From the sequence record PP925835.1: DNA of 64,000 bases; one strand, given 5' to 3'. Made by a program: the position numbers and the translations under genes. Origin of the DNA: Escherichia phage Nernie. Shown in pieces: positions 3,875 through 13,204 of this stretch (positions within the stretch are counted from its first letter, which is position 1; every line of letters starts with the position of its first letter). Under the pieces are notes generated by a model. That model was given only the letters and a program-made list of their open reading frames with translations. It searched no databases and was not told where the DNA came from.

Positions 3875-3893
3875 GCGGGAAACCATTTCCCGC
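3875..3893 (-). promoter_or_regulatory. conserved 5'-leader stem-loop GCGGGAAACCATTTCCCGC
   Basis: 8-bp stem with 3-nt loop; same element recurs upstream of many early ORFs. Confidence 0.6.
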
Positions 3894-4280
3894 CCTACTG
3901 GATACATCTTATTATAAGGGTGATCCTGTGTCAATAGGTAGAATTGTAAAGATTTGATAGTTTATTCCTTTGATGTTTTGTTGTTTAATAGATATTAGCT
4001 ATCAATATATAGCGGGATCTTCCGGTGATTACCTTCCCCTGTCCCCAGGTGCCGCCCGTTCCATAATAATAATCAAAAGCAGGATAAAAGGCAAGATAAA
4101 AAGCAAATTATTTCCTATGTGCTTTAAACGCTCTAAATAGCTTTATAACAGCTTTTTAATCCTGGCAAGGTGATTAGTCATTATTACCTTGTTTAAGCGG
4201 TTATAATCGGTTTTAGGCTGTTTTACGCCACCTTTTACGTTTATTCTTTACGTGTTACTTCCATCGTGAAAAAAGAATAC

Positions 4281-4304
4281 AAAAAAGGGCGCTTAGTGCG
4301 CCCC
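4281..4304 (-). terminator. intrinsic terminator
   Basis: GGGCGC-ttagt-GCGCCC hairpin flanked by A6 on plus (U-run on minus) and T-rich on plus. Confidence 0.6.
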
Positions 4305-4320
4305 TTTCTTTTACCGTGTA

Positions 4321-4710
4321 TTAATATTCGTTATAATACATCGCTAACTTTTCATCAAAAGCCGATTGACGATCTGCATACTCCCAGAACATTTCCTGAT
4401 CCTGTTGTTCGTCATCATCCATCATATTAAATTGCGCAACCTCCTGGTAAGTGATCGCCATATTATAACGATAGGTGATCTCTTCTGCGATGTTTTCCGG
4501 TAAAGATGATTCTACACTGTCTAACAGCATATTTAACATCATTTTAGCCGCTTTTTCATCATTATCAAAGCAGTAAGCAGACCATGCGGCATGATGTTTA
4601 TTTTTCATCTTTGCAATCAAGCCGTTGACTAAAAAAGGCGCTACGTTGTTAACGATACCCTGTAAAGATTGAAATTTTTCAACGTTAGAAACAGAAACCA
4701 GGTTGCGCAT
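4321..4710 (-). CDS. hypothetical early protein
   Basis: ORF track extends to an ATG in the stem-loop loop at 4746; the in-frame ATG at 4710 downstream of the hairpin is more likely the start. Confidence 0.5.
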   Translation of the reverse strand: MRNLVSVSNVEKFQSLQGIVNNVAPFLVNGLIAKMKNKHHAAWSAYCFDNDEKAAKMMLNMLLDSVESSLPENIAEEITYRYNMAITYQEVAQFNMMDDDEQQDQEMFWEYADRQSAFDEKLAMYYNEY

Positions 4711-4733
4711 AGTATTTACCTTTTTGATTACCT

Positions 4734-4792
4734 GGCGGGAAACCATTTCCCGCCTACGTGGTAAATAATAACATACTGGGGATCGGTGTCAA
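4734..4792 (-). promoter_or_regulatory. early promoter plus stem-loop cassette
   Basis: On the minus strand: TTGACA (4787-4792), -10-like element, then GGCGGGAAACCATTTCCCGCC hairpin (4734-4754) in the leader. Confidence 0.55.
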
Positions 4793-4798
4793 TACTTT

Positions 4799-5185
4799 TT
4801 ATTCAATATAAATCAAATTATCTTCACCAATGTAAGCATGCACCGATGGCATTAATTTAGCTGCATTTGTTAGGCGGTTGGCGGTGTTAGTAGTGTATAT
4901 TTCAGGGCGATCCCAAAAGCCTACGCCGTGACCGTTACGGGTAAAATGTAAATCATTCCCGATCTGGTTTGCTGTAGCGCCGTCGCTCATTGCCTCAGAG
5001 ATAGCAGCATCATTGGCATCACAATAAGCCGCTACGTCATGAATGATCCGCTGATGGGCTTGATCTGAAAAATCATAATCGTCTAAGTTATCAATAAAAT
5101 AGCCTTCATGATCCCTGGCTGATTCAGCAAAAATAAAGGCTTCTTTATAACCGTTGATGATTTCAATAATGATTTCAGTTTTCAT
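4799..5185 (-). CDS. hypothetical early protein
   Basis: 128-aa ORF; its start overlaps the upstream stop by 4 nt (ATGA coupling). Confidence 0.5.
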   Translation of the reverse strand: MKTEIIIEIINGYKEAFIFAESARDHEGYFIDNLDDYDFSDQAHQRIIHDVAAYCDANDAAISEAMSDGATANQIGNDLHFTRNGHGVGFWDRPEIYTTNTANRLTNAAKLMPSVHAYIGEDNLIYIE

Positions 5186-5415
5186 GCTGTACGCTCGACA
5201 ATAATAATGGTTTGCGGTATCTCGTTTTCTACTACTAACAAGGCTTTTTTCTGCGTGATAGATATTTTAACACGTTGTAAAGTAGCGGTAAAATCTTTCA
5301 TTTCATTATGCGCGGATTTAGTGCAATGCCAGATCTCAGGTTTACCTATTTGCAAGCCGCGTAAAAATTCTGTTTTACCTGTCTTATTCGTGATCATTTG
5401 ATTCACCTTATCCAA
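5182..5415 (-). CDS. hypothetical early protein
   Basis: 77-aa ORF coupled to the downstream gene. Confidence 0.45.
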   Translation of the reverse strand: MDKVNQMITNKTGKTEFLRGLQIGKPEIWHCTKSAHNEMKDFTATLQRVKISITQKKALLVVENEIPQTIIIVERTA

Positions 5416-5593
5416 TACCGTGGGAAGATAGGATCATGTTAGCCATAGTTGCAACCAATCCAACCGATAACGCCAGGCCAACTACTACAACCGTGAAAAT
5501 TTTCTCTAACATGATTTTACCCTCATTAATGGGCGTTGCCTTATTGCCCCGCCCTACGTCGTACACTTTACCAGATAACTGAATATTGTCAAA

Positions 5594-5788
5594 CTATTTT
5601 TTACAAGGGATCAGTAAACTTCTCGCTACTGCTTCACGTAAACCTTTACTTTTTATTAGATCTATTGTTGCAGGGTGACAAGTAAAAGCCTTTGACCATT
5701 TTTGATCACCTGGTTTACGGGCGAAAATGTATACTTCCCCGTCGATTTCATCCCAACGAGTATTGCTTGTTAGTTTTTTAAGCGCCAT
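5594..5788 (-). CDS. hypothetical early protein
   Basis: ORF track start at 5818 lies inside the hairpin 5812-5827; the in-frame ATG at 5788 (MALKK...) is more likely. Confidence 0.45.
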   Translation of the reverse strand: MALKKLTSNTRWDEIDGEVYIFARKPGDQKWSKAFTCHPATIDLIKSKGLREAVARSLLIPCKK

Positions 5789-5868
5789 GATGATTTCTCT
5801 TTTAGTTGTGAGCGGCACTATTGCCGCCCTACGAAATACATTCTACCCGATTTATAATTGTTGTCAAA

Positions 5869-11353: not shown

Positions 11354-11355
11354 CC

Positions 11356-11910
11356 TTACACAATACAATTTTCGTAATTTTTTAGGGCTTGTCTTTTTTC
11401 CTCTTCCGTCGGCATGTATGGCTGGATCTCTTCCTCTTCCAGGGTAGGCATGATTTCTTCCTCTTCCTCCTGGTCGTCCTGGTCTTCCTCTTGCGCTATG
11501 GTAACAAGTTTATTGATCTTCTCCTGGGCTTTAATTAGTTTTGCATCTAGCACCATTTTAGCGGTGTTGTATACCGTCCATGCCATGCGCTTTTCTTCGT
11601 ATGCCTTATCTAGTGCGGCTAATTTAGCGGGATACTCTTCTAACACCTTAAAAGCCGGATCAATGCTGTATAAGGGATTATTTTTAGCGTCATCGCTTGG
11701 ATCTGCGGCGCTTGCAATGTCAGCGTTACCATTTGCCAGCCAACCAGGGCGAACGGATCGCGCCTTTGTGTTGCCGTTGCTCTTTGCCGCTCGATTTCCT
11801 ATCTGCTCCCCGCTATACCCTACCATGTGATCGATCATGTCATCTGGTATTATGCGCGGATCATTAGCGTCATGCTTTACCCAGGACTGGATCACATACT
11901 CACGCCCCAT
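11356..11910 (-). CDS. hypothetical protein with highly acidic C-terminus
   Basis: 184 aa; C-terminal EEDQDDQEEEEEIMPTLEEEEIQPYMPTEEE. Confidence 0.5.
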   Translation of the reverse strand: MGREYVIQSWVKHDANDPRIIPDDMIDHMVGYSGEQIGNRAAKSNGNTKARSVRPGWLANGNADIASAADPSDDAKNNPLYSIDPAFKVLEEYPAKLAALDKAYEEKRMAWTVYNTAKMVLDAKLIKAQEKINKLVTIAQEEDQDDQEEEEEIMPTLEEEEIQPYMPTEEEKRQALKNYENCIV

Positions 11911-11911
11911 G

Positions 11912-12172
11912 CTAATTTGCCTCTTCTGTTAGTAGTTTACATACCTTAAACATGCTTGCCGCGTCTTTTGACGGTAGCCAGCCTATGCGATACACTCCCG
12001 GATCTGGATTAGTTATATCAGTCAGTTGCGCGTTGCGATGATTAAAAATAGTGTAACCGCCGCCAGCACGGGGATAAACATTATCTTTAAACCTGATAGC
12101 GTATCTCGCCAGGTTGAACGTTGCAGCATGTTCAAAAGCGATCACATTATCAAAAACTTTTAGAAAAAACAA
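11912..12172 (-). CDS. hypothetical early protein
   Basis: 86-aa ORF directly abutting the downstream gene. Confidence 0.5.
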   Translation of the reverse strand: MFFLKVFDNVIAFEHAATFNLARYAIRFKDNVYPRAGGGYTIFNHRNAQLTDITNPDPGVYRIGWLPSKDAASMFKVCKLLTEEAN

Positions 12173-12399
12173 GATTATCCTCCCCAGCGTTTAAAGCCCG
12201 TTGCACGGTTGTTTTTTAGCTCTCGTTTTAGTCTCTTGCAACGGTTTACAAGTGCAAACCGTGCCGGAGTCGTAACAGTAGCGCCGTTTTTGGTGTGAAT
12301 ACTCATTACATATTGTTTCATAAAGTTTTATCCTATGTAAGCGGGAACTATTCCCGCTTTAAGATAGCTTATCAGGTTTTAGTGCAATGTCAACCGTTT

Positions 12400-12762
12400 T
12401 TATTCGTAAATTTTACCGCTTTCTACCCATACCATAACACGGCGCATGTTATCCCATGCATCTTGTCGCAGATTTAAGGCATGCAATTCTTCCGTTGTGC
12501 TCATACCTGGTACGGGCTTGCTATATGTTACAAAGAGATCGCCAGCATATTCATAAGCCAGGGTAAGATCACATTGAATCATCTTTTTAAGCATAGCATT
12601 AAGCATCATATTAGCGGCATGTTGATCACGTTTTAGCGGTAGCGTTGCGATCTGTGAGCGATAGCTTTCGATCCGTGCATCCACTGCATCACGTGGAAGA
12701 TTTTTCACGTCGTCGCGGAAAGATACCAGGTTTAACATGATAGTATTGATTTGCTTGCTCAT
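12400..12762 (-). CDS. hypothetical early protein
   Basis: 120-aa ORF downstream of cassette 12788-12848. Confidence 0.5.
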   Translation of the reverse strand: MSKQINTIMLNLVSFRDDVKNLPRDAVDARIESYRSQIATLPLKRDQHAANMMLNAMLKKMIQCDLTLAYEYAGDLFVTYSKPVPGMSTTEELHALNLRQDAWDNMRRVMVWVESGKIYE

Positions 12763-12787
12763 TGTGTTACCCTTTCTTTGATGGCCT

Positions 12788-12848
12788 GGCGGGAAACCAT
12801 TTCCCGCCTTATGGAGTATATATTACCAAATTATTTTTCAGTGTCAAG
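12788..12848 (-). promoter_or_regulatory. early promoter plus stem-loop cassette
   Basis: TTGACA (12843-12848, minus), 17-nt spacer, TAATAT (12820-12825), hairpin 12788-12808. Confidence 0.65.
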
Positions 12849-12850
12849 AC

Positions 12851-13123
12851 TTAAAGCAAAAACGCTACATCTTGCGCTTTTAGTGTAGTGTCGATCATTT
12901 TCGGGCTTTTATAATCCACAAATCGCGCGGTTTTTTCAATAGCGAAACCGAGATAATCTTGTTTATTGAAATTACATTCTTTTTTAAATGTTTCCCGTGC
13001 CACGGTGATCGCTGCATCCAGGGATAAACGTCCATCAATATTTATGTTAGCGAAAGATCCGCCACCGCGCATAGGTTTACCAGTGATGCCCGTTACGATC
13101 ATTGATGCGCTATATGATGCCAT
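12851..13123 (-). CDS. hypothetical early protein
   Basis: 90-aa ORF downstream of cassette 13148-13204. Confidence 0.5.
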   Translation of the reverse strand: MASYSASMIVTGITGKPMRGGGSFANINIDGRLSLDAAITVARETFKKECNFNKQDYLGFAIEKTARFVDYKSPKMIDTTLKAQDVAFLL

Positions 13124-13147
13124 GATTATTTCTCTCTTCTGTTATGA

Positions 13148-13204
13148 GCGGCACTATTGCCGCCCTATGTGATACATCTTATCAGATTAAAAAACGTTGT
13201 CAAG
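13148..13204 (-). promoter_or_regulatory. early promoter plus stem-loop cassette
   Basis: TTGACA (13199-13204, minus) and hairpin GCGGCACTATTGCCGC (13148-13164). Confidence 0.55.

Follow-up and report, generated by a model that had tools for sequence, protein, structure and literature searches.

The 64,000-nucleotide stretch analysed here (Escherichia phage Nernie, PP925835.1; hereafter the window) belongs to a Justusliebigvirus-type myophage, a phi92/rV5-type phage of E. coli, and its early region, positions 3875 to 13204, contains a repeated cassette in which a sigma-70 promoter is followed by a leader hairpin and a small gene. This region is an array of small open reading frames (ORFs) on the minus strand. 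It shares 97-98% identity, across 98-99% of its length, with the Escherichia phages vB_EcoM_ESCO8, Eryne and Paula, ~147 kb myophages of the Stephanstirmvirinae (Justusliebigvirus and Phapecoctavirus; phi92 and phAPEC8 types), and 285 phage records match it in all. Of ten cassette-led ORFs, nine have matches only in PHROG families without known function and the tenth has no match, while the gene content of the early region varies among phages that are 95-98% identical. The window also encodes homologues of the rV5 primase-helicase and of the rV5 DNA polymerase, the latter T7-like according to the rV5 record, so that the T7-like replication module proposed in a first-pass annotation of this DNA is reasonable.

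Read along the coding strand, a cassette consists of an AT-rich stretch (type aaaaataat) that contains the upstream stop codon and lies 5' of the -35 box, a near-consensus sigma-70 promoter, the hairpin, a leader, a ribosome site and a small ORF. Three canonical terminators divide the array into blocks with several promoters each (Table 1). The first-pass annotation had described a near-identical element recurring in this region, and the repeated promoter and leader-hairpin element is real. The exact pattern GCGG-N11-CCGC occurs seven times in the window against 0.07 expected, a count reached in none of 100 shuffles, and six of these occurrences are one identical 19-mer within 3875-13204. From 3875 to 13163, a hairpin scan picked out 14 GC-rich stems on the minus strand, all perfectly paired and 6-9 bp long. 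A covariance model (R1), the check that the annotation had proposed, was built from ten equal-length copies and run unfiltered over the 64 kb; since MAFFT alignments of all copies misplaced the 3' arms of unequal-length stems, the remaining copies were aligned to the model with Infernal instead. The model recovered 16 minus-strand copies within 3865-13175 (at 3865, 4725, 5523, 5802, 6149, 6369, 6735, 9045, 9306, 9761, 10076, 10495, 11290, 12331, 12779 and 13138) and a single plus-strand copy at 36082-36122, missing from the first-pass annotation; its other matches in the 64 kb were noise or antisense images of palindromes. Two decayed remnants, at ~7158-7169 and ~10963-10975 behind the promoters at 7201 and 11010, were seen by eye, and the early region holds ~18 repeated units in total.

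Rfam 15 gave nothing at gathering thresholds across the whole window, and its two sub-threshold matches in the region are both unrelated to the hairpins. One sub-threshold match, to RT-17 RNA at 11209-11307 on the minus strand (27.4 bits against a gathering threshold of 40.4, E 0.075), overlaps the hairpin-less promoter at 11274 and is probably due to chance.

The hairpin is tightly coupled to the promoter. The exact hexamer TTGACA is found 21 times on the minus strand between 3500 and 13600, for most of them with TAnnnT 16-17 nt downstream, in agreement with the promoter architecture first described. At 14 of the 21, folding of the 45 nt past the -10 box gave a strong hairpin (-10 to -17 kcal/mol) starting 9-12 nt past the -10 box and extending over 16-24 nt. 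Not every copy has a strong promoter: the copy at 6158-6177 has none and that at 9314-9337 only a weak one (TTGCAA/TAAACT). The same coupling appears when the count is extended to 93 sense copies at nine loci from different phages of two subfamilies: 83 of them (89%) have a promoter matching at least 9 of 12 consensus positions and a -10 box whose end lies 7-13 nt (mode 11) 5' of the first helix column, compared with 2.5% of random positions.

Given this set distance from a consensus promoter, every predicted transcript is expected to have the hairpin at its 5' end, as the first-pass annotation had supposed. In 12 of 14 cassettes the eighth base past the -10 box is a purine, and in 13 of 14 a pyrimidine (C or U) precedes it (cAUAGG, cGUAGG), a pyrimidine-purine step of the kind that E. 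coli RNA polymerase usually prefers as a start site. Transcription is thus predicted to start at this step, 8 nt past the -10 box and 0-4 nt 5' of the hairpin. The resulting 5' untranslated regions (UTRs), counted from the eighth base to the ATG, would be 40-53 nt long, with 0-4 unpaired 5' bases, a 5'-proximal hairpin and a mostly unpaired A-rich leader, and their folding z-scores range from -1.9 to -5.3 (-2.9 or lower in 14 of 15). The A-rich leader places the end of the GC stem ~20-27 nt before the ATG, close to the 20-30 nt originally estimated, and contains a weak AAGAG ribosome site that is largely open in the folds. Cassette-led genes have stereotyped ribosome sites that are weaker than those of the other genes of the region (3853-13203), with mean duplex energies of -4.3 and -6.1 kcal/mol respectively (p = 0.008), and GGAG is present in 0 of 15 cassette-led genes compared with 4 of 15 others.

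The cassette family is statistically solid and widely conserved. We found the same cassette in Phapecoctavirus, Justusliebigvirus, Vequintavirus, Seunavirus and Certrevirus, five genera of two subfamilies, the carriers being Phapecoctavirus ASO2A, phi92, rV5 (Vequintavirus), Enterobacter phage FENT2 (Seunavirus) and Pectobacterium phage PcCB7V (Certrevirus). The 71 unique sense copies reduce to 36 distinct hairpin cores, every one of which folds. Hairpin energies of the sense strand have a median of -14.9 kcal/mol (-8.0 to -18.7), and in 57 of the 71 copies the sense RNA folds more stably than its antisense (means -14.6 and -13.3 kcal/mol), which gives modest support to a structure formed by the sense strand. 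The hairpins have no U-tract: the 8 nt 3' of the stem contain 0.75 T on average, and 0-1 T in 58 of the 71 unique copies.

In a model-based alignment, pairing is kept in 98.4% of cells and two-sided changes affect five of nine pairs (41 cells), in line with the compensatory stem changes noted initially. These figures come from an alignment fitted to the model, whose rows include ~30 antisense images of palindromes; sense-only statistics were calculated separately. The covariation score is 0.206 against 0.112 after shuffling, is reached in none of 500 shuffles and collapses when the partners are slid, and RNAalifold independently recovers the same helix. All of G-C, C-G, U-A and A-U occur at pair 6, and pairs 7-8 are A-U or G-C. 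Among the copies in the window, AGGCGGUGGaauagcCCACCGCCU (9314-9337) has U-A at the fifth pair of the GCGG core, equivalent to pair 6 of the model helix, and the inner pairs of the plus-strand hairpin GCGGAGGAuugUCCUCCGC depart from the common type by two-sided changes. The outer four pairs (GCGG/CCGC), in contrast to these inner ones, show zero variation in 90 distinct rows. The 5' flank (A/G)UAGG is invariant across two subfamilies, and the leader CAYRUAGG is conserved across both.

The energies, the UTR z-scores and the compensatory changes point to a stable structure maintained by selection. The original argument for selection on structure holds for the inner pairs, which compensate, but the invariance of the outer stem is not explained by such selection alone. 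The loop, which the annotation had taken to be conserved, is not: loops differ in length (3-6 nt and more) and in sequence (UGG, AUAG, AUGG, GUAU, AAUAGC, UUG, CAC and others), and the distance between the GCGG and CCGC half-sites ranges from 6 to 16 nt.

Table 1. Cassettes, remnants and terminators in the window.
Feature	Position	Strand	Details
Cassette	13121..13203	-	TTGACA-16-TAAGAT, leader gtatcacatag, hairpin GGGCGGCAauagUGCCGCUC 13146-13165, AAGAGAG ribosome site, ATG 13123; z -3.96
Cassette	12760..12847	-	TTGACA-16-TAATAT, hairpin GGCGGGAAAuggUUUCCCGCC 12788-12808, ATG 12762
Cassette	12319..12393	-	TTGACA-16-TAAGCT, hairpin AAGCGGGAAuagUUCCCGCUU 12339-12359, ATG 12321
Promoter with short variant hairpin GGCGGGGCAACGCC	11297..11352	-	TTGACA-17-TAATAT; R1 14.1 bits
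Second consensus promoter, hairpin-less	11247-11274	-	between GGCGGGGCAACGCC copy and ATG 11209
Promoter with decayed hairpin remnant cGGGAauacUCCu (~10963-10975)	10932..11010	-	TTGACA-17-CATAAT, ATG 10934; missed by R1
Cassette	10477..10562	-	TTGACA-16-TATAAT (12/12), hairpin GCGGGAAuagUUCCCGC 10505-10521, ATG 10479
Cassette, top R1 match (57 bits)	10060..10144	-	TTGACA-16-TATAGT, leader ttatcacatag, hairpin GGCGGGAAAuggUUUCCCGCC 10085-10105, ATG 10062
Cassette	9745..9826	-	TTGACA-16-TAAAAT, hairpin GGGCGGCAauagUGCCGCUC core 9771-9786, ATG 9747
Cassette, weak promoter	9288..9375	-	TTGCAA-16-TAAACT, hairpin AGGCGGUGGaauagcCCACCGCCU 9314-9337, ATG 9290; z -5.33
Cassette	9031..9112	-	TTGACA-17-TAAAGT, hairpin GGCGGGAAAuggUUUCCCGCC 9054-9074, ATG 9033
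Promoter with weak 4-bp remnant hairpin CGGCaaagGCCG (~7158-7169)	7128..7201	-	TTGACA-16-TAAACT, ATG 7130; -7.8 kcal/mol; missed by R1
Cassette	6722..6806	-	TTGACA-17-TATATT, hairpin GCGGGGAAAuggUUUCCCCGC 6745-6765, ATG 6724
Cassette	6353..6438	-	TTGACA-17-TAAAGT, hairpin GGGCGGGAAAuggUUUCCCGCUC 6377-6399, ATG 6355; in phage ECGD1 duplicated around extra ORF
Promoter-less copy	6136..6177	-	hairpin GGCGGGGAguauUCCCCGCC 6158-6177, ribosome site, ATG 6138
Cassette	5786..5867	-	TTGACA-16-TAGAAT, hairpin GGGCGGCAauagUGCCGCUC core 5812-5827, ATG 5788
Cassette	5510..5592	-	TTGACA-16-TAAAGT, variant hairpin GGGCGGGGCAAUAAGGCAACGCCC 5531-5554, ATG 5512; z -4.55
Cassette	4708..4792	-	TTGACA-16-TATTAT, hairpin GGCGGGAAAuggUUUCCCGCC 4734-4754, ATG 4710
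Cassette	3853..3934	-	TTGACA-17-TAAGAT, hairpin GCGGGAAAuggUUUCCCGC 3875-3893, ATG 3855
Sole copy beyond early array	36054..36133	+	TTGACT, TATAGT, leader aagacataga, hairpin GCGGAGGAuugUCCUCCGC 36094-36112, AGAGGAG ribosome site, ATG 36131; 44.1 bits
Canonical intrinsic terminator	4281..4309	-	GGGCGC..GCGCCC then T-run; closes one early transcription block
Canonical terminator, apparently bidirectional	8493..8517		AAAAGGGCGC..GCGCCCTTTT; closes an early block
Canonical terminator	3129..3147	-	AGGGCGC..GCGCCCT then T-run; end of last block

Comparison of positions 3000-14000 with Paula, ECGD1, ZYD, KKE7M and phi92 revealed 16 distinct indel or replacement events, with ~22 of 32 breakpoints at most 15 nt from a cassette; cassettes make up 22% of the region. 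In five events the two ends fall at equivalent positions of two different cassettes (5574/5861, 9360/9807, 13165/13419, 10934/11203 and 3595/3930), and three insertions in relatives are bordered by duplicated cassette sequence (6353-6448, 10470-10547 and 5548-5574). The extra ORFs in ECGD1 and ZYD each bring their own promoter and hairpin, and an ECGD1 junction falls exactly on the TTGACA hexamer; the mapped junctions lie in the -35/UP region or near the ATG, away from the hairpin. Related phages appear to swap early genes at the cassettes.

Individual differences can be seen along the array. ECGD1 lacks 13166-13418, both junctions lying at equivalent positions downstream of two promoters. At 9362-9520 and 10148-10225 on the minus strand, a 52-aa Cys-rich ORF and a 25-aa ORF are indels relative to close relatives, each gained or lost directly 5' of a cassette promoter.

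The first-pass annotation had likened the element to the promoter-early stem-loop (PeSL) cassettes, known from the T4-type phages phi1/RB49, PST and nt-1 (Arbiol et al. 2010, PMC2839356; Comeau et al. 2014, PMC4122927). The likeness holds for the overall cassette and for PeSL-like gene shuffling: both systems combine a sigma-70 promoter and a GC-rich stem-loop with an AT-rich stretch, in which the upstream stop codon lies, and with a ribosome site and ATG, both are found where small ORFs without known function are arrayed in a variable (hyperplastic) region, and in both the indel or replacement breakpoints between close relatives fall within cassettes. It does not hold for the position and sequence of the hairpin. 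PeSL stem-loops are most commonly found between the promoter hexamers or in overlap with the -10 hexamer (PMC2839356), and in PST directly 5' of the promoter (PMC2839356, PMC4122927). Our scan of 24 kb of RB49 that includes its variable early region gave typical cassettes of the form aaaaagttgTTGACA-GGGGATC..GATCCCC-TATACT-acacacata...ggagaatcaaaATG, in which the stem-loop lies in the spacer that separates the -35 box from the -10 box and hence outside the promoter's own transcript. The hairpins described here, by contrast, lie 9-12 nt past the -10 box, within the predicted transcript, have a GCGG..CCGC stem without U-tract, and occur in the Stephanstirmvirinae and Vequintavirinae; R1 gave noise-level matches only in the same 24 kb of RB49, with no counterpart. 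Since position, sequence, U-tract and lineage differ, we class the cassettes, despite the common composition and evolutionary behaviour, as an analogue or new variant of PeSL and not as a member of the PeSL family.

The repeated anatomy, the coupling to promoters and ribosome sites, the retained pairing, the lack of terminator tails and the clustering of junctions lead us to read these units, with a probability of roughly 0.55, as self-contained early expression cassettes: their transcribed 5' hairpin would stabilise or insulate the mRNA, and the cassettes would double as sites of recombination. Mechanistically, every early mRNA would carry the hairpin, as an RNA structure, at its 5' end, where it would hinder 5'-end-dependent decay by RppH and RNase E. 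Such stem-loops are known to stabilise E. coli mRNAs (ompA, papA; work of the Belasco laboratory), because RppH and RNase E require single-stranded 5' ends and are blocked by secondary structure (reviewed in PMC3997798), and RNase E is a major factor in the decay of T4 early mRNA (PMC3014915). In read-through transcripts from upstream promoters, the hairpin could in addition act as a fixed boundary that keeps the ribosome site open and the leader apart from upstream sequence. As a second role, one supported by the comparison of genomes, the repeated 80-90 bp cassettes would provide sites of homologous recombination for the insertion, deletion and exchange of promoter-hairpin-ORF modules. The notion of regulatory cassettes as gene-shuffling vehicles, known for T4-type phages, would then hold for an unrelated second group of large myophages as well.

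The cassettes share with the ompA and papA 5' stem-loops a stable hairpin a few nucleotides from the predicted 5' end, followed by an open ribosome site, but they differ in being a multi-copy, sequence-conserved, promoter-fused module with ~18 copies in one genome, whose 5' position is a prediction. The T7 gene 10 leader hairpin is another 5'-terminal stabilising stem-loop. A homologue of the Srd-like gp11 of rV5, which might have tied the hairpins to RNase E stimulation, is absent from the window. If the cassettes work in this way, the early genes of these phages would be organised as nested transcripts, with many strong host-type promoters and a standard 5' leader for each, and would offer compact natural parts (promoter, 5' hairpin and ribosome site) for use in E. 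coli.

Several points weigh against reading the units as stabilising expression cassettes. Strong early promoters at 11274, 8278 and 7813 have no hairpin, and one conserved hairpin, GGCGGGGAguauUCCCCGCC at 6158-6177, has no promoter: it lies a few nucleotides past the stop codon of the upstream ORF 6185-6355 and is kept in four relatives, a conservation that fits the insulating role in read-through transcripts. The start site is predicted only, and a start at the sixth base past the -10 box would leave a 5-6 nt overhang that may make full protection doubtful; literature searches found no transcript start-site or transcriptome study for Stephanstirmvirinae or Vequintavirinae. The covariation counts are inflated by relatedness: the alignment was fitted to the model, and many copies go back to a small set of stem types, so that independent events are far fewer than cells. 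Viable indels, in turn, must end between genes, where the DNA of this region is mostly cassette. Finally, stability requires neither the invariant outer pairs nor the (A/G)UAGG flank, which hints at sequence-specific recognition or at copied cassette types.

This excess of invariance over the needs of stability keeps a sequence-specific reader in play, the dull alternative being repeated copying of cassette types. In such a scheme, which we regard as rather unlikely, the hairpin base GGCGG/CCGCC and the (A/G)UAGG flank form a common operator through which a phage or host protein controls the whole early set, and its effect could be shut-off, translational control or the loading of an antitermination factor on RNA polymerase, as for lambda N/boxB. 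The constancy of the outer four pairs beside freely swapping inner pairs is what such a reader predicts, as is the conservation of the CAYRUAGG leader across two subfamilies; the element is also confined to sigma-70 early promoters and absent from the rest of the 64 kb. As with the lambda nut and HK022 put sites, the hairpin is transcribed and promoter-proximal, past early promoters, and the operons end in real terminators that later transcription might have to pass.

The likeness to nut and put has its limits. The loops vary in length and sequence, unlike those of boxB, which carries a defined pentaloop, or of coat-protein operators; there is a single short stem compared with the two-stem put RNA, and ~18 promoters are involved compared with two. 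Neither an N-like protein nor any other candidate binding protein was identified. In ~6 of 16 copies the hairpin is followed by CGCUCAYAAC, which is faintly similar to the boxA consensus, but a boxA-like motif 3' of the hairpin was rejected as a general component, being found in this minority only. An operator for a dimeric DNA-binding repressor was likewise rejected, as the half-site spacing varies by 10 nt (6-16 nt), which excludes a fixed dimer on double-stranded DNA. Repeated copying, or gene conversion, of a small number of cassette types could be another source of the invariance itself. We consider it quite improbable that the GGCGG/CCGCC base and (A/G)UAGG flank are, more specifically, an RNA operator on the ~18 early transcripts, by which a dedicated phage or host factor would switch the early set together through timed shut-off, translational control or antitermination. 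If true, these phages, in which the switch from early to middle expression is poorly understood, would carry a 5' RNA tag that spans a whole regulon.

A third explanation takes the hairpin to matter at the DNA level, as a hairpin or cruciform signal or as shared homology for the recombination and spread of modules, with little role in expression; we think it very unlikely. It would account for the clustering of breakpoints in cassettes, the extra ORFs with cassettes of their own, the insertions bordered by cassette duplicates and the presence of a few cassette types in many copies, and Arbiol et al. proposed the PeSL stem-loop as a possible target of recombination proteins (PMC2839356). The junctions, however, spare the hairpin itself and fall at the -35/UP region or near the ATG. 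The set distances to the -10 box and the ATG speak for a function within the transcript, the antisense RNA is systematically less stable than the sense RNA, and compensatory changes preserve a pairing for which plain homology has no use; neither these distances nor these changes sit easily with a role at the DNA level alone.

The public annotation offers yet another interpretation. In the records of ASO2A (MZ726793) and Paula (LR865361), the leader hairpins are labelled as rho-independent terminators (WebGeSTer, TransTermHP); the ASO2A features stand ~10 nt 3' of annotated promoters, and several of those in Paula are placed on the opposite, wrong strand. The phi92 record annotates only ribosome sites. 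As terminators or attenuators, the hairpins would lower read-through from upstream promoters and so prevent a build-up of expression along the array. Apart from the calls of the two programs, this is favoured by the many promoters and few canonical terminators, which would otherwise give a steep expression gradient, and by the terminator activity of one PeSL stem-loop (phi1/RB49 pair), which matched rrnB T1 termination in a reporter (PMC2839356).

We nevertheless hold a terminator function to be highly improbable. The hairpins have the GC-rich 5-10 bp stem and short loop of intrinsic terminators, but not the U-tract, and they lie ~10 nt past the promoter -10 box; at ~+4 to +25, and at a set distance, a terminator would abort the transcript of its own promoter, a problem that the RB49 stem-loop escapes by sitting in the promoter spacer. 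The three canonical terminators of the region (GGGCGC..GCGCCC plus T-runs) also belong to a separate sequence class. To judge from their sequences, the cassette hairpins do not look like terminators, and the GenBank labels look wrong because the hairpins lack a U-tract. Correcting them would remove a systematic annotation error, with dozens of 'terminators' 10 nt past promoters in records of the phi92, phAPEC8 and rV5 types, many of which are phage-therapy candidates. Papers on rV5, ASO2A and an O177 phage count or list promoters and terminators and do not describe the cassette, and our literature searches found no description for this phage lineage; the cassette appears to be undescribed in this lineage and mislabelled in databases.

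Two further candidates were rejected: an RNase III processing site, as the stems have only 5-10 bp and this enzyme needs longer ones, and N4-type hairpin promoters for a virion RNA polymerase, as the promoters are of the sigma-70 type (no search was made for such a polymerase).

Other features of the array and its relatives deserve mention. In phi92 (20271-20613), the homologous early array heads toward the right direct terminal repeat, so that the cassettes adjoin a genome end. For several early ORFs, the rV5 record (NC_011041, 112000-137947) notes a similarity to hypothetical proteins of RB49, a T4-type phage, which suggests exchange of early ORFs between the rV5-type and T4-type groups, both of which carry promoter/stem-loop cassettes. 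At the upstream edge of the region, 13204-13600 on the minus strand contains two further sigma-70-like promoters without hairpin (-35 at 13286 and 13463), a tiny hydrophobic ORF (~13214-13306) and an untranslated G-rich stretch. Toward the other end, no convincing ORF was seen in the ~350 nt (3935-4320) that separate the terminator at 4281-4309 from the promoter at 3934. No tRNA genes were found in the 64-kb window.

The plus-strand copy at 36054..36133 precedes a gene for a TerC-family membrane protein (36131-37108; PF03741, E 1e-38). Just 5' of this gene, on the same strand, lie genes for a ComF-like phosphoribosyltransferase (PRTase; 34002-34865, PF15610) and a Macro-domain protein (34741-35574), and the segment 34002-37108 looks like a small phage-borne gene cluster of the Ter/PRTase type.

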